Positions 34,886 to 63,054 of a stretch of DNA of 64,000 bases are shown here, piece by piece; the stretch's first letter is position 1, and each line of letters starts with the position of its first letter. This DNA comes from Escherichia phage phiWec186. The notes beneath the pieces were generated by a model, which searched no databases, was not told the origin of the DNA, and saw nothing but the letters and a program-made list of their open reading frames with translations. The DNA is taken from the sequence record LC739535.1. One strand, given 5' to 3'. A program made the translations under genes and the position numbers.

Positions 34886-36451
34886 TTAATTCGATAAGTT
34901 TGCTGCTGATGGATCAAGAGCCGAAACGCTGGTGGATGTACCTGTACCTGCGGTCGCCATACCGTCTCCAGAACGTGAAGTTTTATCTGGCATGAATGTC
35001 TCCATATATTCTACGAATTTATCCTTGTCAGAAACAATGTCGTCTGGTATACGATAATCAAAGCCTAACTTCTCTAAGAACTCGTTGATAATTTCCGCTG
35101 TAAGTGGAATAGCTCCTGCTGCAACAATCTGTTGGATCGCTTTAGCGTTTACTTCAATATCAGGATCGCCCATTTCACCACTAACAAACTTCGGCATATC
35201 TTCATCGGAAAGGAAGATATTGTTTAAGCGAAGTGCTTGTGGGATCAATTGAGAGTTAATAGCTTCAACAACAATATCTACATCACGTTCAATGAAGTGT
35301 GAGAGCAGGGTCTGTTTATTATCGGACAATGCAAAGCTGCCAGCGTCCCCGTCACCCATTATCAATACACCCGCACCAAAACGGTTGTAAATATCCAGTT
35401 TACGTTGTTTGATCAGTTCTTGCGTATCAAACTGTTTACCAGCCCCTTCTACACCTTGGAACACCAGGTCATACTGACGCATAACAGTGCCTTCATAAAC
35501 GTCTGAAGGTAATACCATATATGCTTGCTCACCAGAGTGTAGGTTAGCAATGTTTGCCTGGAGCACGCGTAAGGACTGTGCTTCATCTCCGGCAGGGTCA
35601 AGAGATGCGCGGTTAAGAATATCGCTCGGTACTTTCAGAACAGGCATACCGCCCAAATCTTTAGAAACACCGATAACTTCGAATTCTTGAATTAAAGATT
35701 TTTCACGCCAGCTACGATATACAGCCAACAGAGGTGACACACCCAGAGGATTGTTTTCTGTGATATTGCTACCAACAAAAATAACCTTGTTCATGGGGAT
35801 TTGACGTACACCCAGTTGTAGCTTACTATTACCTGGAGCCAACATAGTATTGGTGATGTTCTGGTTTACCGAAATAACGGAGCGACCATCATCAGAATAG
35901 GTGAAAGGGTTTGACATATCCAAAGTATCTTGCGGTCGGAAAGCAAGCTTAGTGAGACGATAATAGCCATAGTATGGACTCTTCGGATCTTCGTCAAGTT
36001 CAAACACCTTTTCAGCAAATGCAAAACCGAACTGCTTATATGTAAGAAGAGATCTCACATACTGGCGTAATGGTGCTTGCATGTTGCGTAACATGTATTC
36101 AATAAACTTTGCAGCTTTTCTTGACTTGGCAGAGTTTACGTTGTATTTTATTTTAAAGTCGAAAAATGCTCTGTCTACGAAAATGTATGTTGCATCAAGA
36201 GCGGTAGCAACATCTGGGTCTTCACCCATTTCCTTATAAGTACGGATGTTTTCAGGAAAGCGTGTTTCATACGGTTGCATGAAGTTAGTGAATGCTTTGA
36301 TTGAGTTCAACCCAATCGTCCCGATTTCAGGAGAGAGAAGTAAACTCTTTTCTTTCTCTGCCTGTTTTGACGGAGAGAGAGCAGCTTTGTTCACTGCACT
36401 TTGTTTCCAGTAATCCGACTTCTTAGTGTACTGTCTTTTTTCTGTTGACAC
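34886..36451 (-). CDS. portal protein
   Basis: 521 aa immediately downstream of the terminase large subunit. Confidence 0.7.
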   Translation of the reverse strand: MSTEKRQYTKKSDYWKQSAVNKAALSPSKQAEKEKSLLLSPEIGTIGLNSIKAFTNFMQPYETRFPENIRTYKEMGEDPDVATALDATYIFVDRAFFDFKIKYNVNSAKSRKAAKFIEYMLRNMQAPLRQYVRSLLTYKQFGFAFAEKVFELDEDPKSPYYGYYRLTKLAFRPQDTLDMSNPFTYSDDGRSVISVNQNITNTMLAPGNSKLQLGVRQIPMNKVIFVGSNITENNPLGVSPLLAVYRSWREKSLIQEFEVIGVSKDLGGMPVLKVPSDILNRASLDPAGDEAQSLRVLQANIANLHSGEQAYMVLPSDVYEGTVMRQYDLVFQGVEGAGKQFDTQELIKQRKLDIYNRFGAGVLIMGDGDAGSFALSDNKQTLLSHFIERDVDIVVEAINSQLIPQALRLNNIFLSDEDMPKFVSGEMGDPDIEVNAKAIQQIVAAGAIPLTAEIINEFLEKLGFDYRIPDDIVSDKDKFVEYMETFMPDKTSRSGDGMATAGTGTSTSVSALDPSAANLSN

Positions 36452-36554
36452 TTTCTTCCTCCGGCACTGTGCTTAAAGATCAATAGGGCAAGGGTTAAAT
36501 AAATTAACCCGCCCATAAAGTCATTGTACACTTTAAAGTAACTTTTGTCAACAA

Positions 36555-38633
36555 TTATCTTCGACGAGGAGTACTTACAGTAGTGAAATGCCTGGAGTTC
36601 ATGTTACTGTACCCAGTAGGTGCATTTGTTGTTGTAGGTATCGCTACAGCCTTGTGTGCCGTCTCTTTCGCCAGAGTGTTGAAGCAAGATGCTGCGGCAT
36701 CTGGAAGGTCATCTTTAAGCATTGCTGTAGATCGTTCACCGTTAAAAGATTCCAATTCTTTATAAAAGTGATTCAAAGTTTCAATGTTAGGAAATGAATC
36801 TTCTACGATATAAACAAAACCATTCTGACAGGCACTACTGAACGGCATGAAACGTTGAAGTTTCTTTTTGTTGCCTGGCATTGCGTCGGGTTTAACAACA
36901 AAACCTTCAACAATAAGTTTCTTAGCTGATTCCGTATATTCAATGAGTCCAGCACCAGACGGGTCTTTTGGAAGAACGATCTGAACATCTGGTCCATCAA
37001 TCTTAGCCTGTTGGAGGATCAGGTTATCCCTGTCACCAGGTAAGCGTCGGAATCTTCCGAAAACTTTACTCTTCTCGTCTATAGCGTCGTAATCATAATC
37101 CCCGAAGATATAAATGTTCCCGTTTAGGTCTTTACCCATCTTAACCGATGCTGTATAGTCGGGATAACGATAACGTTCACTTGGAACGGATACAGCTTTA
37201 TCCCATGCACGCATATACTTCATGTTGTTAGGAACATCTTTGTATTCTATCTTGTGAAGCCATTCACGTTGGAAGAATGATTCCTCTTGAATACGGGCAA
37301 ACCAACAACCATCCAGAAGCTGTGCTCGCTTGATCGCTGTCTGCGATTTAAGAGAAGCCAGGTATTTCGGGTTAAGGCGAATCAGTTCAGGGTTATCAAA
37401 GATCGTACCGCCGATAAACACAAACGTTTGAGGTTCGATCGTAACAATCTCACCAGTGTTTGGGTTCTCCATGAAACAGTTTTCAGGATACTTCTCTTTA
37501 AGTTCCTCTGCTGTGTCGGCAAATACAGGCTCATCATTTACAATAATGAAGTAGGTTTGTTTACCACACATATCTTCACGAGGATAACCGCCTTCGTCAA
37601 GATAAGGTAACACCCAGTTCAGTACCCAGCTATCCGCATCGGGGTTACAGGTACAGAGCATGAAAGATGTTTCTGACTCGGAACGCATACGACCGAGAAG
37701 ATAAAGCATCTCGTACTGGGTGAAATGGGTGAGTTCGTCAAAACCAACCATACTGTACTGTGTACCCTGATGGTTAGTCTCGGCTGTAACGTTATCGTTC
37801 TCCAGATGGTCAAACTTCAAAGTACCACCGTTAGTGGCCTCAAAGATAATGTCCATCGTACTTTCTTTTACGTGTGGTTGTAAAGGAAGATACAAACGTT
37901 TAGCTTCTGTAAACAAACCCCCTGGCTTACGGTGTGCAGTAGTGTTCTTACGGAATAAGATACCACCGAACAAAGGATCTTTATAGGCAAACTTAAGGGC
38001 TTTTAGCAGAAGCAGACGAGACTTGCCGCTATTGCCAGTAACGAAGCAGTGATTGCCCCGTCTAAGGACAATATAGCTACTTGGAGTTTCAAAGCAATAT
38101 TTCTTATCATCAGATGTAATAACCTCGTGTATTTTTAAATAAGTGTTTTGTTTGCCTGGGATGTTAAATGGAACGCGCTTACCGAACGGATCTTCAATGT
38201 ATCCTTTCAGTGGTGCTCCTGCTTGTTGCAGAGCAATAAGATCTCCCACAGCAATCTCAAAATGTTTTTTGGATTTCTTTTTCTTGTAAAAGACGAAACG
38301 ATGCTCCATACTCAACTCTTGGAACACTCCTGCACCATTAGTGATTCGGTACAGGTTGTCATCTTTCATATCGTATTCTACGAAGTAAGGTGTGACCAAC
38401 TCTAAGCGTTTTCTCTTAGGATTATACTGGTAGATATCTTCTCCACTGTACTGACTTATTTGTTTCCAACCATCACGGGTAAGATACTCTGTTTCAGCAG
38501 ATACACAACCTGCGGCACCACCGTAAATCATAACTTCCGGCATTAGATCCATTGCCAGCGTCTGTTTACCTGGTTGAGCCTTTACTTCGATATCAGCGCC
38601 AGCTAAACTGCCAGCCGCTTTTTTCTTAGCCAC
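36555..38633 (-). CDS. terL: terminase large subunit, interrupted by a mini-intein in the Walker A P-loop
   Basis: GTG start with GGAGGAG RBS; split Walker A YGGAAG / SGKS; Walker B MVGFDELTHF; C-terminal nuclease-type region. Confidence 0.8.
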   Translation of the reverse strand: MAKKKAAGSLAGADIEVKAQPGKQTLAMDLMPEVMIYGGAAGCVSAETEYLTRDGWKQISQYSGEDIYQYNPKRKRLELVTPYFVEYDMKDDNLYRITNGAGVFQELSMEHRFVFYKKKKSKKHFEIAVGDLIALQQAGAPLKGYIEDPFGKRVPFNIPGKQNTYLKIHEVITSDDKKYCFETPSSYIVLRRGNHCFVTGNSGKSRLLLLKALKFAYKDPLFGGILFRKNTTAHRKPGGLFTEAKRLYLPLQPHVKESTMDIIFEATNGGTLKFDHLENDNVTAETNHQGTQYSMVGFDELTHFTQYEMLYLLGRMRSESETSFMLCTCNPDADSWVLNWVLPYLDEGGYPREDMCGKQTYFIIVNDEPVFADTAEELKEKYPENCFMENPNTGEIVTIEPQTFVFIGGTIFDNPELIRLNPKYLASLKSQTAIKRAQLLDGCWFARIQEESFFQREWLHKIEYKDVPNNMKYMRAWDKAVSVPSERYRYPDYTASVKMGKDLNGNIYIFGDYDYDAIDEKSKVFGRFRRLPGDRDNLILQQAKIDGPDVQIVLPKDPSGAGLIEYTESAKKLIVEGFVVKPDAMPGNKKKLQRFMPFSSACQNGFVYIVEDSFPNIETLNHFYKELESFNGERSTAMLKDDLPDAAASCFNTLAKETAHKAVAIPTTTNAPTGYSNMNSRHFTTVSTPRRR
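38028..38507 (-). other. mini-intein (Hint domain, about 160 aa) inside terL
   Basis: Starts with Cys (CVSAETEYLTRDGW, block A-like), has a block B-like SMEH, ends ...HCFVTGN followed by Ser; removal restores GGAAGSGKS. Confidence 0.55.
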
Positions 38634-38642
38634 TTCTCCTCC

Positions 38643-38969
38643 TTACTTACTGATAATCCCTTTCTCTTGCAGAGCCTTAATGTAGTTTTGCAGACCGATT
38701 ACTTTATTACGATCTTGACTCCAGAGAACATTGTTTGTGGTTCCGTTGTCAACAACTTCTGAACGAGAAACACCTTTCGCCACTTGTTGATCCGTATACG
38801 GCACTGGCTCACTTACACCCTCCATAAGAGAGGATTCTGGAGCTTTGACTTCTTGTACCGCAACAGCTTTACATTCATCAATTAGAATCGGGGAGGCTTT
38901 TGTTGAGGATGCGCAACCCGTCATCATTAGGGCCGAAGCAAGACATAGACCCAGTAGTAGTTTTTGCAT
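38643..38969 (-). CDS. putative outer-membrane spanin lipoprotein (Rz1-like)
   Basis: Signal peptide with lipobox-like LMMTGC; 5' end overlaps the upstream i-spanin-like ORF. Confidence 0.45.
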   Translation of the reverse strand: MQKLLLGLCLASALMMTGCASSTKASPILIDECKAVAVQEVKAPESSLMEGVSEPVPYTDQQVAKGVSRSEVVDNGTTNNVLWSQDRNKVIGLQNYIKALQEKGIISK

Positions 38970-39285
38970 AGTTTGTTTTCTCCTCGTTTATCTTCTTTTC
39001 CTTGTTTGCTAAATCTTTTCTCAATTGAGCATTCTTGGCAGAGAGTGAAGCGATTTGGTTATTAAGAGCGAGACGTTCATCATCTGCTTTCTTTTGAAGA
39101 ACATCAAAATCTTGTTTTGCTTTTGCTTGTTGTTGCTGATAGATAGTTACTTGGTGCTGTTCTCCAGCAGTGTAACCATTATCATATAAAGCCTTTCCGC
39201 CGAAGTATAAACCAGCTAAAAGGGCTACTAACAGAAGAATAACGTAAAACCATTTACTCTTCAGAATCATTGGTATCAGGTTCAT
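38878..39285 (-). CDS. putative inner-membrane spanin (Rz-like)
   Basis: N-terminal TM helix (FYVILLLVALLAGLYF) followed by a coiled-coil region; overlaps the lipoprotein ORF. Confidence 0.45.
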   Translation of the reverse strand: MNLIPMILKSKWFYVILLLVALLAGLYFGGKALYDNGYTAGEQHQVTIYQQQQAKAKQDFDVLQKKADDERLALNNQIASLSAKNAQLRKDLANKEKKINEEKTNYAKTTTGSMSCFGPNDDGLRILNKSLPDSN

Positions 39286-39564
39286 CTTTAAATCTCACTT
39301 TCGGTAAGGATGGAGAGTTATTCACTACCTTCTTCACTTCCATCGGTTGGGCTTCCGCAAGAATCTCTTCCCACGTCTTCTCGATCATCATCTAATTCGT
39401 CCTCAAGATCCCATTGACGGGAATAATCATTCTTTCTGTCGCGGTGGACAGAAGATTTGTTAAAATCATTCTTAACTACAAAGTTGCGCATATTTTATCC
39501 TCCTCAATATTGATCTTATCACAAAACATATACACAATGCAAGCCCTAAAAATAAAAAGCCCCT

Positions 39565-39600
39565 AACCTTTCGGAAAGGGGTTGTTAAAATAACAAGGAG
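39565..39600 (-). terminator. putative rho-independent terminator (minus strand)
   Basis: CCCCT...AGGGG hairpin followed by CTTTTTATT on the minus strand. Confidence 0.4.
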
Positions 39601-39631
39601 GAGAGGGCAAAGCGCCCCAAGAGAGGAGAGG

Positions 39632-39922
39632 TTAAATTACAATTTTCTTAGGCTGTTCTTCCACAACGGTAGGCGTTTCTTCCTCCATTGCTTCATAATG
39701 TTCTTCCAACCAGTCTTCGACTTGCTCTTTAATGGCTTTCGCTGCTTGGAATCGGAGAGGTTTTGCTGCTTCGTTGTCATACACAAGTTCAACGATGTAT
39801 TTCATGGCTGCGAGATAGTTCTCGGCAAACAATTCCTTCACTGTTGCTTGTGCTGCATCCATAGCGTAAATTTGTTGCATTTCTGCGGTAGGTCGTCCAC
39901 GACCACGTTTAAGTTTAGGCAT
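39632..39922 (-). CDS. small DNA-binding protein (possible terminase small subunit)
   Basis: N-terminal KRGRGRPT AT-hook-like motif; position upstream of terL. Confidence 0.35.
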   Translation of the reverse strand: MPKLKRGRGRPTAEMQQIYAMDAAQATVKELFAENYLAAMKYIVELVYDNEAAKPLRFQAAKAIKEQVEDWLEEHYEAMEEETPTVVEEQPKKIVI

Positions 39923-40020
39923 GTGTATTCCTCCTACAATTTATCGTATCATAAAAATATTCTTGTGTCAAGTTTTACTTTTACATGTACAACTGACATA
40001 CCAATAACCCAGAAACAAAA

Positions 40021-59361: not shown

Positions 59362-61602
59362 GTGATTCGATACGTTACTAAATCAAATGGTAAGACAGAA
59401 GAGTTCAATCCTGAAAAACTGCGTAAATGGTCTGAATTTGCAGCAGGGAAACTGAACTGGTCGGAAATTGAATTAGAAGCTGTGAAACGTTGTTACGATG
59501 GTGTGTCTACTCGTGATTTACATAAAGCTATGATCGCTGCGTGTATTGATAAGAAGACTCAAGCGTACAGTGATATGGCAGGTCGATTGCTTCTCGGTAT
59601 GATTTACAAACAGGCTCACGGGGGATACCACAGTATCCCTTCCCTGTACACTTTCTACCAAGATATGGTGAAGCGTGGACATTGGGCCAAGATGGACTAT
59701 ACCGAAGAAGAAATCAAAGAGATTGGTAAGATTGTCAAACATAACAAGAATCTAACCTACGGTTATTCTGTTCTTCGTCAGATGGCGGATAAATACTTGG
59801 TTCGTGATGCTGTGAATGATGTTGTTCACGAGTCACCGCAATTCCTGTTTATTGGTGTGGCAATGCGTGTTATGGAGATCCAGCCTAAAGATCGTCGTAT
59901 CAACGATATCAAAAAGCTGTACACATACGTAAGTGATCTTCAGATTAACTTACCATCTCCTTATCTGACAACGTTACGTACTCCGATCAAAGGTAGCGCG
60001 TCTTGTTGTTTATTCCGTGCAGACGATACAGCAGAGTCTTTGGCTATTGCAAACTATCTGGCACACGAATATACGTTGAATAATGCAGGGATTGGTGTTA
60101 ACCTCCAAACTCGTGCAACTGGACAGGGTGTTAAGAACAACCGTATCGTTCATGGTGGTCTTCTCCCTTACCTCAAGTGGATGGAAGATAGCGTAGGAGC
60201 TTCTAAACAAGCGAGTCGTGGAGGTAGTGCAACGGTTACGTTCACAATCTTGGAGCCAGATTTTGAAGATCTGATTCGACTGAAGAACCCAACCACTCCG
60301 ATCGATAAGCGTGTTGATAAGCTGGATTACTCTGTTGTTGTAAACCGCTCCTTCCTTCGCCGTGCGGCTAAAGGTGAAGAGTGGATGCTTGTGAGCTGTG
60401 ACGAAGCACCGGAACTTTACGAAGCATTGTACAAAAGTGAAGAAGAGTTCGATGCGGTCTACGATAAAGTTAGTCGCCGTCGCATCAAAAAGAAAATTGT
60501 TAAGGCTCGTGACCTGTTGACTGAAATCATTGTTCAACGTGCAGAAACTGGACGTATTTATATGTTCTTCGCTGACAACGTAAACAATCACAGTCCTTTC
60601 CTGGATACTGTGTATCAGTCAAACTTATGTCAGGAGATCTTTTTACCTACTAAAGCGTTCCATAAAATGACGGATCTCTTTACTGGTGAAAACACAGAAG
60701 ATCAAGAATTGGCTTTATGCTTCTTGTCCTCTATTGTTGCTGGGCGCGTTACGCCGGAGCAATATGAAGATGTTGCGTATTATACTGTATTGACGATTGA
60801 TAACGTTATTGAGACGATGGAATATCCGTTCAAACATAACGAGATCACAGCTAAGGCTCGCCGCTCTATCGGCGTAGGTATTACAAACCTTGCACATTAC
60901 TTGGCAAGCAACTTTGTAACCTATTCTGATCCTTATGCGAAGAAGCTGATGCATGAATTAGCAGAACGTCATTACTTCTGGTTGGCACAAGCCTCTCTGC
61001 GCTTGGCGAAAGAGAAAGGTAATGCCGAGTGGATGGATAAAACTAAGTGGCCTCAAGGTTGGCTCCCTATTGACACCTACGCTAAAGCAGTAGATACTAT
61101 TGGGGACTTTGAACTGAAGCTGGATTGGGAAGGCTTACGTGCTGGTATCATTGAACAAGGTGGTATCCGTAACAGTGTGCTTGCAGCAGTGGCCCCGAAC
61201 GAATCAAGTAGCTTGGTGAGTAATACGACCAACTCACTCTACCCTGTACGTGACACGATCATGTACAAACAGAGTCAGAAAGGTAACGTACTGTTTATCG
61301 TACCAGATTACGAAAAACTGAAAATGTTCTATCAGTCGGCGTGGGATACCCCGTCTAAAGATATTGCCGAGATGTATGGACTCTTCACTAAGTTTACGGA
61401 TCAGGGTATCTCCTGTGATGCTTGGTTAGATTATTCCAAAATGGAAGGTGGACGTTTATCAGTGAAAGCCGAGATGCAATTTATCTTAACATTTGCAAAG
61501 CTTGGTGGTAAATCTCTTTACTACCTGAACAGCCGAACCAAATCAGCGGAATCTATGGCCCAAGAAGATTCTGATGGTGGTTGTGAAGCTTGTAAAATGT
61601 AG
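59362..61602 (+). CDS. nrdA: ribonucleoside-diphosphate reductase alpha subunit (class Ia)
   Basis: N-terminal ATP-cone (VTKSNGKTEEFNPEKLRKW), SNLCQEI active-site region, C-terminal CEACKM redox cysteine pair; GTG start after GGGAGGAG. Confidence 0.85.
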   Translation: MIRYVTKSNGKTEEFNPEKLRKWSEFAAGKLNWSEIELEAVKRCYDGVSTRDLHKAMIAACIDKKTQAYSDMAGRLLLGMIYKQAHGGYHSIPSLYTFYQDMVKRGHWAKMDYTEEEIKEIGKIVKHNKNLTYGYSVLRQMADKYLVRDAVNDVVHESPQFLFIGVAMRVMEIQPKDRRINDIKKLYTYVSDLQINLPSPYLTTLRTPIKGSASCCLFRADDTAESLAIANYLAHEYTLNNAGIGVNLQTRATGQGVKNNRIVHGGLLPYLKWMEDSVGASKQASRGGSATVTFTILEPDFEDLIRLKNPTTPIDKRVDKLDYSVVVNRSFLRRAAKGEEWMLVSCDEAPELYEALYKSEEEFDAVYDKVSRRRIKKKIVKARDLLTEIIVQRAETGRIYMFFADNVNNHSPFLDTVYQSNLCQEIFLPTKAFHKMTDLFTGENTEDQELALCFLSSIVAGRVTPEQYEDVAYYTVLTIDNVIETMEYPFKHNEITAKARRSIGVGITNLAHYLASNFVTYSDPYAKKLMHELAERHYFWLAQASLRLAKEKGNAEWMDKTKWPQGWLPIDTYAKAVDTIGDFELKLDWEGLRAGIIEQGGIRNSVLAAVAPNESSSLVSNTTNSLYPVRDTIMYKQSQKGNVLFIVPDYEKLKMFYQSAWDTPSKDIAEMYGLFTKFTDQGISCDAWLDYSKMEGGRLSVKAEMQFILTFAKLGGKSLYYLNSRTKSAESMAQEDSDGGCEACKM

Positions 61603-61643: not shown

Positions 61644-61982
61644 ATGAGCACACTTATAGTTTTACCTGGAGTAACCCCAATCTACCGACCTGGGTTTAAG
61701 CCTCTGTTGCTTTGCCCTGAAGATTTCACCCCTACTTGGTGTCACCATTATCTTGGTGGACGTGAAATAGCTAACATGCAGATTTGGGAATCTTTTTATC
61801 CAGAAGCCACGGCTTACGCAATAACAAGAGCAAGAAGTGAAGAAACAGTGACTGTTATACTTGGTAGAAGCGTATGGGAAGCATTAGAAGGTTTCTACCG
61901 GAGTAATGGTTTTGAGGAACAAGATATTTTAAACTTAAAAGGTTTTTGTGAAATAGTGGAGGATTTAAATGGCAGCAATTAA
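61644..61982 (+). CDS. hypothetical protein between nrdA and nrdB
   Basis: ORF with GAGGAG RBS. Confidence 0.5.
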   Translation: MSTLIVLPGVTPIYRPGFKPLLLCPEDFTPTWCHHYLGGREIANMQIWESFYPEATAYAITRARSEETVTVILGRSVWEALEGFYRSNGFEEQDILNLKGFCEIVEDLNGSN

Positions 61983-63054
61983 TTTACATAATGAGACTTA
62001 CAAAACAGGTAAATATCCGGTATTCATGGGTGAGCAATTGGGGATCTTTGACTCAATTAATGTGACGTATCCTGAAATGCACCGTCTGTATAAACTTCAG
62101 AAAGCCCAAGATTGGGATGAGAATGAAGTGGATCTTAGTCAGACCCGTAAAGACTTTGTAGCGTGTTCAAAAAACAACTACGATGTTATGATCAAGAACT
62201 TGTCGTTCCAGTGGGAGAATGATTCTCTGGCAAAATCCATCATCACTTTGTTCTCTCCGTTTTTGAGCAACAATGAAGCATGTGCTATGATGATGAAGCA
62301 GAGTGAGATGGAAGTGCTTCACGCTCTAACTTACTCGGAGATTGTTCGCCAGTGTACTCCAAACCCTGTAGAAGTTATTGATCAGATTATGGAGAACGAC
62401 AAGATCTTCAACCGTATGGGTATCATTGCAGAGATCATGGGAGAGTTGGAAGAAGCAGGTCACAAATATGCACTTGGTCTGATTGAAGCTGATGATAAAC
62501 TACGTTTGCTGGTCATGAAAGGTCTGGTAGCCCTGATTGGTCTGGAAGGTATCCAGTTTATCTCTTCTTTCTCGGCAACGTTCGCCTTGGCAGAACAGCA
62601 ACTGTTTGTAGGTGCTTGTAAGCTGATTCAGAAAATCATGTTGGATGAAATCCTGCATGTTAAAATGGACTATGCTGTCATTGATGCTCTGATGCAAGAT
62701 CCTGTGTGGAAGAAGATCTACGAAGATAACATCGAAGAACTTACAACTATTCTGGATACAGTTATCGCTCAAGAAGAGCAGTGGTGTGATTATCTGTTTA
62801 GCGAAGGACGTTTTATCGTTGGGCTGAATGCTGAACTGTCCCGTCAATGGGTGTACTTCAATGCGGCTCCAATTTATCGTCGTTTGAAGATGAAGCACAG
62901 CTTTAAATCTCCTAAACAGAACCCACTACCTTGGATGGACATTTGGTTAAACCCAGATCAGATTCAAGCAGCGGCGCAAGAGATCCAAGTTACAGCTTAC
63001 AAACTGAACTCGGCTAACAAAGATGTTTCTGATGATATGGAGTTTGACTTCTAA
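61969..63054 (+). CDS. nrdB: ribonucleoside-diphosphate reductase beta subunit (class Ia)
   Basis: Di-iron ligand pattern (EVLHALTYSE, LEGIQFISSF, DEILHVKMDY) and C-terminal DDMEFDF tail typical of R2. Confidence 0.8.
   Translation: MAAINLHNETYKTGKYPVFMGEQLGIFDSINVTYPEMHRLYKLQKAQDWDENEVDLSQTRKDFVACSKNNYDVMIKNLSFQWENDSLAKSIITLFSPFLSNNEACAMMMKQSEMEVLHALTYSEIVRQCTPNPVEVIDQIMENDKIFNRMGIIAEIMGELEEAGHKYALGLIEADDKLRLLVMKGLVALIGLEGIQFISSFSATFALAEQQLFVGACKLIQKIMLDEILHVKMDYAVIDALMQDPVWKKIYEDNIEELTTILDTVIAQEEQWCDYLFSEGRFIVGLNAELSRQWVYFNAAPIYRRLKMKHSFKSPKQNPLPWMDIWLNPDQIQAAAQEIQVTAYKLNSANKDVSDDMEFDF

Follow-up and report, generated by a model that had tools for sequence, protein, structure and literature searches.

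A predicted mini-intein within the Walker A motif of the large terminase subunit of Escherichia phage phiWec186

The large terminase subunit (TerL) of Escherichia phage phiWec186 is interrupted between G42 and S202, within its Walker A motif, by an in-frame insert that is very probably a cis-splicing mini-intein without an endonuclease. We infer splicing from the anatomy of the insert, a Hint-fold structure model, homology, conservation and the existence of intein-free alleles, all of which support the mini-intein reading proposed in a preliminary description of this DNA. The window analysed is a stretch of 64,000 nucleotides from sequence record LC739535.1 (Table 1). According to this reading, TerL would be made as a 78.8-kDa precursor with a broken ATP-binding loop, from which the Hint-fold domain (18.6 kDa) would cut itself out and join G42 to S202; the resulting 60.3-kDa TerL would have GGAAGSGKS as its P-loop. 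The predicted junction peptide of the ligated protein is QTLAMDLMPEVMIYGGAAGSGK, with a computed mass of 2240.6 Da. Since the P-loop is broken until excision, packaging ATPase activity would depend on splicing.

Table 1. Positions of the TerL precursor gene, its exteins and the predicted intein in the 64,000-nucleotide window
Feature	Position	Strand	Description
TerL precursor ORF	36555..38633	minus	692 aa, ~78.8 kDa; GTG start; stop codon 36555..36557
N-extein, TerL residues 1-42	38508..38633	minus	QPGKQ and IYGGAAG motifs common to intein-free TerLs
First half of Walker A, G38-G-A-A-G42	38508..38522	minus	closes the N-extein
Predicted mini-intein, TerL C43 to N201	38031..38507	minus	159 aa, 18.6 kDa; Hint fold; no homing endonuclease
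Cys1 codon TGT, block A:1	38505..38507	minus	candidate N-terminal nucleophile; Cys in 159/160 family inteins
Block B, S66-M-E-H69-R70-F71	38295..38312	minus	B:7 Ser, B:10 His, B:11 Arg, B:12 Phe; His in 159/160
Start of block F, Y137-C138-F-E-T-P142	38082..38099	minus	C138 = F:4 = TerL C180; Cys 159/160, Tyr 158/160, Pro 142/160
End of block G, T157-G158-N159	38031..38039	minus	G:5 Thr, G:6 Gly (usually His), G:7 Asn (predicted to cyclise); Gly 160/160, Asn 160/160
Start of C-extein, S202-G-K-S205	38019..38030	minus	second half of Walker A; S202 is the predicted +1 nucleophile
C-extein, TerL residues 202-692	36558..38030	minus	remaining ATPase (Walker B MVGFDEL) and nuclease domain

The precursor reads ...MIYGGAAG/CVSAETEYLTRDGW...SMEH...KYCFETPSS...HCFVTGN/SGKSRLLL, where the slashes mark the predicted splice sites. 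An insert of 160 residues at 38028-38507 had been claimed; its in-frame position stands, and its end and length had to be corrected, because the AGC codon at 38028..38030 encodes the +1 Ser that is kept in the spliced protein. Excision of the 159 residues in silico yields GGAAG-SGKS, the same P-loop as in intein-free relatives. On the precursor, Pfam Terminase_6N matches residues 202-460, TIGR01630 (NCBIfam) matches the C-terminal part, and Terminase_6C (Pfam) matches weakly. After splicing in silico, the Terminase_6N match starts at profile position 1 instead of 8 and rises from 63 to 69.9 bits, and Terminase_3 (Pfam) exceeds its cut-off. The continuity of the TerL reading frame rules out an intron or a frameshift, and a second TerL can be eliminated since each phage record contains one TerL place. 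No further copy of the intein family was found elsewhere in the 64-kb window.

Homologues of TerL without an intein carry a contiguous P-loop at exactly the insertion point. The TerL of Vequintavirus MaxTheCat (IGGAAGSGKSFLL) contains an uninterrupted GGAAGSGKS, that of JohannRWettstein (YGGAAGAGKTAAL) an uninterrupted GGAAGAGKT, and H101 TerL (GGARAGGKSELL) is likewise intein-free. Av-05, a phage from the subfamily of MaxTheCat, contains an intein at the identical TerL site. The alignment with intein-free terminases that the preliminary description had proposed as a check therefore reveals no equivalent insert kept as a domain.

The residues expected at the splice junctions are all present in TerL (C43, the block B His H111, N201 and S202). 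Closer inspection of the sequence bears out the Cys at position 1, the block A-like start, the S-M-E-H element of block B and the Gly-Asn end followed by Ser, all of which had been pointed out before. The suggestion that the insert is too short to contain a homing endonuclease also holds, since its 159 residues give no match to an endonuclease family in Pfam. Beyond these features, the intein contains a near-invariant Cys in block F, a Thr in block G and an Arg in block B. These three residues tie it to the class 3 intein AceL NrdHF, and for this reason it should not simply be taken for an ordinary mini-intein of class 1.

Recognition by Hint or intein models, to which the preliminary description had also looked, did not materialise: the insert has no match in Pfam or NCBIfam even at E<=10, and neither the insert nor any family member scanned matches Pfam Hint/Intein_splicing or TIGR01443/01445. 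A sequence scan of the PDB with the insert returned nothing meaningful, and one with its C-terminal 41 residues returned nothing. Word-indexed homologue searches with the single sequence or with a profile gave few matches, and no precomputed intein Pfam domain was attached to them. In contrast, a profile built from the family of the insert matches the AceL NrdHF intein (PDB 6ZGQ) with E=2.4e-10. AlphaFold prediction from the single sequence was unusable (pLDDT 49); with an alignment built from contiguous inteins, a high-confidence structure model with the Hint fold was obtained. Beyond the Hint core, this model contains nothing but residues 83-114, which form one short helix and two or three strands. 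Because the family profile matches a solved intein and the model adopts the Hint fold, we attribute the missing Pfam and NCBIfam match to the insensitivity of these models. It is not evidence against an intein, nor is it a defining biochemical feature.

At a threshold of at least 80% identity, the intein was found in 133 records and the N-terminal extein in 132; all of the approximately 132 close relatives carry the intein. The dN/dS ratios of the intein (0.06-0.08) and of the extein (0.04-0.07) are rough values, since dS is saturated (about 1.3-1.9); judged by them, the intein is under purifying selection. Recent acquisition can be ruled out on the basis of the slight difference in GC content (39.4% vs 43.6%) and the presence of the intein in all relatives.

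To delineate the family, we used the insert as the query in an exhaustive phmmer search; the counts refer to representatives of clusters at 50% identity. Relatives of the insert comprise 685 representatives at E<=1e-3, of which 96 reach E<=1e-10. Their host proteins are unrelated and include TerL, DnaB-type helicase, primase, RtcB, PhoH, MetK, both subunits of ribonucleotide reductase (RNR), DUF444 and SpoVR. Most of these inteins sit at G/[S/T/C]GK[S/T], that is, in P-loops. Most copies are 300-340 residues long and exceed the mini-intein by about 170 residues, which are placed at the position of its residues 83-114; in two members, this extra segment matches LAGLIDADG_3 below (P0032) or above (P0114) the cut-off. 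The family inteins are otherwise only about 30-40% identical, and all 160 examined have Asn followed by Ser (77), Cys (47) or Thr (36) as the +1 residue. A MAFFT alignment of 63 sequences has Thr or Ser at G:5 throughout, and B:12, which is F71 in the phiWec TerL intein, is V, F, I, L or M across the family. From these sequence comparisons, the TerL intein is a member of a large phage-borne lineage, the sole characterised member of which is the split class 3 intein AceL NrdHF.

With this information we could weigh the possibility that the insert does not splice, and is instead a folded domain that stays in the protein permanently, an intein that has decayed, or a domain that only cleaves, similar to bacterial intein-like (BIL) domains, in which case the 692-residue protein or its fragments would be functional. 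This reading could account for the lack of a direct match to curated intein models, but a 159-residue domain between G42 and S202 would break the GxxxxGK[ST] loop of the only TerL of this phage, the splice-junction and catalytic residues are all intact and near-invariant, and the insert is under strong purifying selection. Homologues occupy catalytic motifs of many unrelated essential proteins, and the close structural relative AceL NrdHF does splice. BIL domains lack a +1 nucleophile and mainly mediate cleavage, unlike the TerL intein, which has a +1 Ser, sits in an essential catalytic loop and belongs to a family in which Asn and a +1 nucleophile are invariably present. We consider a non-splicing element highly improbable.

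The best match of the family profile is the AceL NrdHF-1-1 intein (PDB 6ZGQ; Hoffmann et al. 2020, PMC7891396); structural alignments place its identity to the TerL intein at only about 18-20%. Both inteins have Ser at B:7, His at B:10, Arg at B:11, Cys at F:4, Thr at G:5, Gly at G:6, Asn at G:7 and Ser at +1. They share an S-x-x-H-R-hydrophobic block B (S65, H68, R69 and M70 in AceL) with a residue other than Trp at B:12, a Pro four residues past the F:4 Cys (C124 and P128 in AceL), and the absence of an endonuclease from the intein itself. They differ in that AceL NrdHF starts with Ala1 instead of Cys1, occurs naturally as two halves separated by a GIY-YIG gene whereas the phiWec TerL intein is contiguous, and resides in an RNR beta subunit instead of TerL. 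Activity of AceL NrdHF requires C124 (F:4), receives a contribution from T144 and R69, and is lost upon the G145H mutation; at 37 °C this intein splices within minutes and shows little side cleavage (PMC7891396). The B:12 residue of this intein is Met and not Trp, yet it is a class 3 intein by mechanism, and the authors inferred a probable phage origin for the metagenomic contig that encodes it (PMC7891396).

Canonical class 3 inteins, also called WCT inteins (MP-Be DnaB, Msm DnaBi1; PMC2807308, PMC5222942), resemble the TerL intein in the F:4 Cys, the G:5 Thr, Ser or Thr at +1, preferential insertion into the P-loops of terminases and helicase-type ATPases, and a proposed phage origin. The TerL intein differs from them by the lack of a B:12 Trp, a penultimate Gly instead of His, and Cys1, and the family profile detects no similarity to canonical class 3 inteins at E<=10. 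The sequence definition of class 3 demands that position 1 is not Cys, Ser or Thr (Tori 2010, Hoffmann 2020), which leaves the TerL intein outside the class. The mechanistic definition (PMC5222942; Tori and Perler 2011 as cited there and in PMC4031507) does not require the absence of a nucleophile at this position. Class 1 mini-inteins such as Npu DnaB, gp41-1 and Mvu TFIIB give no match or only a marginal match to the family profile (E 0.01-0.2); the TerL intein differs from them by having Cys instead of Asp at F:4, Gly instead of His at G:6, and no His at F:13.

Provided that splicing occurs, we lean slightly towards a five-step chemistry drawn by analogy with AceL NrdHF. As in AceL NrdHF, Cys138 (F:4) would be the indispensable residue at which the thioester branches, while Cys1 would either form an earlier linear thioester and hand it over to Cys138 or act in parallel to Cys138. 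The N-extein would then be handed to Ser+1, Asn159 would cyclise with the help of Arg70 in place of a penultimate His, and an O-to-N shift would produce the peptide bond.

An alternative proposal holds that the TerL intein is an ordinary class 1 intein, in which Cys1 alone would start the linear thioester, Ser+1 would attack it directly and Cys138 would merely assist like the usual Asp at F:4. This proposal accommodates Cys1 in 159 of 160 family members and a block B of the class 1 type (S/T-x-x-H), but the F:4 Cys is just as invariant (159/160). The F:4 Cys is also the essential nucleophile in AceL NrdHF, the nearest characterised relative, even though B:7 and B:12 of that intein acted as in a class 1 intein (PMC7891396). 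One of the two inteins of P0088 (intein 2, inserted at the AceL NrdHF site) combines Cys1 with Gly at F:4 and, if functional, indicates that the F:4 Cys is not obligatory in this lineage. The Thr at G:5 is a hallmark of class 3. WCT inteins that have retained Ser1 or Cys1 reportedly splice via the class 3 route. According to PMC5222942, which cites Tori and Perler 2011, class 3 inteins do not need an N-terminal Cys, Ser or Thr. Taken together, a purely class 1 mechanism appears somewhat unlikely.

Conversely, Cys138 might attack the G42-C43 bond directly in a pure class 3 mechanism, in which Cys1 would be dispensable and kept for structure or for a redox-sensitive disulfide with Cys138. In favour of this mechanism, AceL NrdHF carries the same motifs together with Ala1 and undergoes rapid class 3 splicing at 37 °C, P0088 intein 1 combines Lys1 with an F:4 Cys, and 113 of the 160 family inteins have Ser or Thr at +1, in keeping with the class 3 preference (PMC2807308). 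However, Cys1 is conserved as strongly as Cys138 and is not required by this mechanism; a dispensable residue would hardly have remained Cys in 159 of 160 sequences that are about 30-40% identical, and position 1 of canonical class 3 inteins is varied and non-nucleophilic (PMC2807308). We regard dispensability of Cys1 as unlikely.

More tentatively, the TerL intein and its family of about 700 clusters could represent a distinct dual-cysteine kind of intein that requires both Cys1 and the block F Cys, a proposal we consider doubtful. It could take two forms. In a thioester relay, the N-extein would move from Cys1 to Cys F:4 and on to Ser or Thr at +1; in a redox switch, a Cys1-Cys138 disulfide would keep the packaging ATPase and the many other intein-bearing phage ATPases inactive until conditions become reducing. 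Variants that have lost one of the two cysteines (AceL NrdHF with Ala1 and Cys at F:4, P0088 intein 1 and P0088 intein 2) lend support to an origin of class 3 chemistry within this lineage, independent of canonical WCT inteins.

Inteins in TerL P-loops are already known as a kind. The mycobacteriophage inteins TerL1-a and TerL1-b (Kelley et al. 2016, PMC5050341) also occupy Walker A of a phage TerL, where neither the ATPase nor the pentamer can form before splicing, and several other TerL inteins of that study, at sites b, c, e, f and g, were shown to splice (PMC5050341). They differ from the phiWec intein in that they interrupt Terminase_1 instead of Terminase_6 proteins, at GK/T or one residue off instead of G/SGKS, and form a separate intein lineage in phages of actinobacteria; TerL1-b of BAKA contains an active LAGLIDADG endonuclease, unlike the phiWec mini-intein (PMC5050341). 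The phiWec TerL intein, whose group is the Stephanstirmvirinae, comes from a large and barely studied phage lineage with two candidate catalytic cysteines. We found no report of it in the literature on phAPEC8, phi92, Phapecoctavirus, Stephanstirmvirinae or Escherichia phage large terminases. A paper from 2024 describes inteins as so far unreported in coliphages (PMC11162368), and the BASEL table lists 0 inteins for EmilieFrey, a phage of this group, the nearest listed relative of which, phage outra, does contain the TerL insert. The Certrevirus paper concerns a TerL intron, not an intein.

These observations suggest that the packaging motor of a whole coliphage subfamily, including phi92, phAPEC8, BASEL phages and therapy candidates, is made by predicted protein splicing that has escaped annotation. 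Since the intein models of Pfam and NCBIfam do not detect this family of at least 685 clusters, censuses built on such models undercount phage inteins; a profile made from the family alignment would detect members that these models miss. The lineage unites features of class 1 and class 3, and its contiguous 159-residue representative, adapted to E. coli and with a Ser+1 junction, is a candidate for mechanistic work and protein engineering. For the phage itself, splicing would be obligatory before DNA packaging and could therefore be a control point.

The gene for the terminase large subunit (TerL) is flanked upstream by spanin genes and downstream by the portal gene, and each related genome contains a single match to TerL. 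In the unprocessed protein, the Pfam model Terminase_6N covers only residues 202–460, and this match begins at profile position 8. Across the insert, the sequence reads ...EVMIYGGAAG↓CVSAETEYLTRDGWKQISQ...ELSMEHRFVF...DKKYCFETPSSYIVLRRGNHCFVTGN↓SGKSRLLLL (arrows mark junctions). The preliminary description had interpreted this segment as a mini-intein splitting the Walker A P-loop, and joining G42 to S202 does restore GGAAGSGKS as it proposed. The length it assigned (160 aa, 38028–38507) is too large by one codon, as position 38028 takes in the AGC codon of Ser+1, the first C-extein residue. After splicing in silico, Terminase_6N matches from profile position 1 onward and its score improves from 63 to 69.9 bits; Terminase_3 scores above its gathering threshold with a match that spans the junction. 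We regard the insert as confirmed and, with the one-codon correction, its reading as an intein as supported.

Features of the TerL region and other loci in the window
Feature	Coordinates	Strand	Remarks
TerL ORF	36555..38633	minus	GTG start, 692 aa
TerL intein	38031..38507	minus	C43..N201, 159 aa
10-tRNA cluster	40506..42563	minus	Met, Ile, Pro, Gln, Gly, Thr, Tyr, Ser, Arg, Met; about 2 kb upstream of TerL
RNR large subunit	59362..61602	plus	uninterrupted
RNR small subunit	61969..63054	plus	uninterrupted

Escherichia phages phiWec179 and phiWec181 have the identical sequence in this region (100%); for phAPEC8- and phi92-like phages (Stephanstirmvirinae), identity is about 80%. Host labels look inconsistent among the public records that match window 36000–40000: the record named Pseudomonas phage PsgM04F shares 96.9% identity with the phiWec E. 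coli phage over this range, and several Campylobacter or Acinetobacter phage records are phAPEC8-like genomes with about 80% identity.

Relaxing the threshold to E ≤ 10 brought up no Pfam or NCBIfam match for the insert, and searching the PDB directly with its sequence returned noise only. Although the preliminary description had proposed to take a miss by intein models as evidence against an intein, this is a problem of sensitivity, because the insert has relatives in unrelated hosts, conserved junctions and a solved relative. Searched exhaustively with phmmer, a set of 1.84 billion cluster representatives yielded 685 related proteins at E ≤ 1e-3 (96 at E ≤ 1e-10). Most match in two stretches, an N-terminal and a C-terminal half that flank about 170 extra residues, and the complete elements total 300–340 aa; a minority are minis of 140–175 aa. 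The extra residues of the larger members bear two LAGLIDADG-like motifs, and LAGLIDADG_3 gave a match there in two members, once just under and once over the Pfam cutoff. According to Pfam or annotation, the host proteins are TerL, DnaB-type helicases, primases, RtcB, PhoH, SAM synthetase, both subunits of ribonucleotide reductase (RNR), DUF444 and SpoVR. We compared the junctions of 160 inteins found in the top 150 proteins of this family. Position 1 is Cys in 159 and position −1 is Gly in 130; position +1 is Ser (77), Cys (47) or Thr (36) and nothing else, followed in most cases by GK(S/T). The typical target is therefore a P-loop, G↓(S/T/C)GK(S/T). Almost no variation is seen at C1, T6, E7, W14, the block B His, the Tyr-Cys-Phe of block F, one Arg and the Gly-Asn end. 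In Pseudomonas phage KIL4, the primase/helicase CDS (locus L005, 1430–4231) is annotated as a two-piece join, and its span contains a family intein (GSASG↓CVDKDTEYL...FITGN↓TGKST) that may have been cut out of the annotation at the DNA level, as though it were an intron.

The preliminary description had also suggested a comparison with intein-free terminases, and such homologues exist. With the spliced N-terminal 229 residues of TerL as query, tblastn returned single-piece matches over the junction from Felixounavirus-like and other phages, and the loops read from these genes are contiguous: ILVIGGAAGSGKSFLLQL in Vequintavirus MaxTheCat, LVLYGGAAGAGKTAALL in Felixounavirus JohannRWettstein and LCGGARAGGKSELL in Pseudoalteromonas phage H101. 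Phage Av-05 (Vequintavirinae) carries a larger insert at the identical point (IIGGAAG↓CLSKDHEVL...CVVVTGN↓SGKSYLL), so that this subfamily has both intein-plus (Av-05) and intein-minus (MaxTheCat) alleles. The Av-05 intein (locus L002, 2911–4041; about 243 aa) retains only the second LAGLIDADG-like motif (ADFIQFV), its endonuclease having therefore decayed, and is an intermediate between full-size forms (such as P0036 with 324 aa) and the 159-aa mini. At this same position, the version in Vibrio phages 193E37-1 and 501E54-1 has 147 aa. The TerL CDS of 193E37-1 (locus L003, 2914–3759) ends at GFDEL*, at Walker B, and that of 501E54-1 (locus L011) continues past this point, which points to a second interruption, either an endonuclease-bearing intron or a sequencing error, in 193E37-1. 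Six metagenomic proteins of about 290 aa (P0007 and P0156–P0160), one of them on a 67-kb contig, are N-terminal TerL fragments with a 56–63% identical intein copy. They stop about 85 residues past the intein, and the corresponding phages may have a second split in TerL farther downstream.

When 52 family members were combined into a profile, it matched the AceL NrdHF-1-1 intein (PDB 6ZGQ; E = 2.4e-10), ahead of weak matches to other inteins. Class 3 splicing is proven for AceL NrdHF: the reaction depends on Cys124 in block F as its first nucleophile, the block B His is held by Thr144 (G:5), and Arg69 (B:11) makes up for the absent penultimate His, with G145H killing activity; B:12 is Met instead of Trp, and the Cys is followed by a Pro-Gly kink (PMC7891396). 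The TerL intein presents the same set at nearly equal numbering (S66, H69, R70, F71; C138 with P142; T157, G158, N159; Ser+1), whereas position 1 is Cys in the TerL intein and Ala in AceL NrdHF. The block F Cys is exactly as conserved in the family as Cys1 (159/160). Both candidate nucleophiles vary in P0088, an RNR small subunit with family inteins at its two ExxH iron-ligand motifs (residues 100–319 and 419–651). Their losses are complementary: the first intein has Lys1 and Cys at F:4, the second Cys1 and Gly at F:4. The second occupies the exact AceL NrdHF site (IIRDE↓...↓SIH vs SIRDE↓...↓SMH). If both are functional, either cysteine could suffice in this lineage.

Provided that the TerL intein splices, we slightly favor a route that requires a thioester branch at Cys138, with Cys1 taking part as a relay or alongside it. 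Less probable is a pure class 1 route; the Cys at F:4 and the Thr-Gly-Asn end set the element apart from textbook class 1 inteins. An N-terminal nucleophile is dispensable for class 3 inteins even where one is present (PMC5222942), and a pure class 3 route, which we consider unlikely, would equally make Cys138 the branch point, so that these assessments overlap. Canonical WCT class 3 membership is ruled out by the lack of Trp at B:12, the presence of Cys1 and the lack of detectable profile similarity. The TerL intein, with branch-point Cys138 and contributing Cys1 as the favored reading, is best assigned to an AceL NrdHF-like lineage, as a contiguous member with Cys1.

Splicing would convert the 78.8-kDa precursor to 60.3-kDa TerL and an 18.6-kDa intein ahead of the start of packaging. 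The precursor would have to splice by then because Walker A cannot form around 159 residues and TerL is the sole copy. Kelley et al. made the same argument for mycobacteriophage TerL inteins located in or beside Walker A, and their reporter assay showed splicing of the representatives tested (sites b, c, e, f and g; PMC5050341). At ≥80% identity, the intein occurs in 133 phage records and the spliced N-terminal extein in 132; thus, no close relative without the intein was found. Rough dN/dS estimates from five TerL genes of the subfamily, with dS saturated, are 0.06–0.08 for the intein, 0.04–0.07 for the extein and 0.02–0.05 for the ATPase part. Purifying selection clearly holds the intein, slightly more loosely than the motor it interrupts. 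The window contains one copy of the family, and the GC content of the intein (39.4%) is slightly under that of the extein (43.6%).

TerL P-loop inteins are an established kind, and the phiWec case is not new in this respect (PMC5050341; PMC2807308); class 3 inteins are also known from terminases and P-loops (PMC2807308). In the literature searched we found no report of a TerL intein in Stephanstirmvirinae, and public records name this protein only "terminase large subunit" or "hypothetical protein". According to a 2024 paper, no coliphage inteins had been reported up to then (PMC11162368). In the BASEL table, the three phi92-like phages are credited with 2, 0 and 1 inteins. The 0 belongs to EmilieFrey, whose nearest listed relative, phage outra, has the TerL insert; hence, this intein was evidently left uncounted, and the inteins counted in other phi92-like phages must lie in other genes. 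AceL NrdHF, which had been described as unusual and of low similarity to other inteins, is now placed in a very large phage-borne family in which Cys1 is the rule and to which Pfam and NCBIfam are blind.
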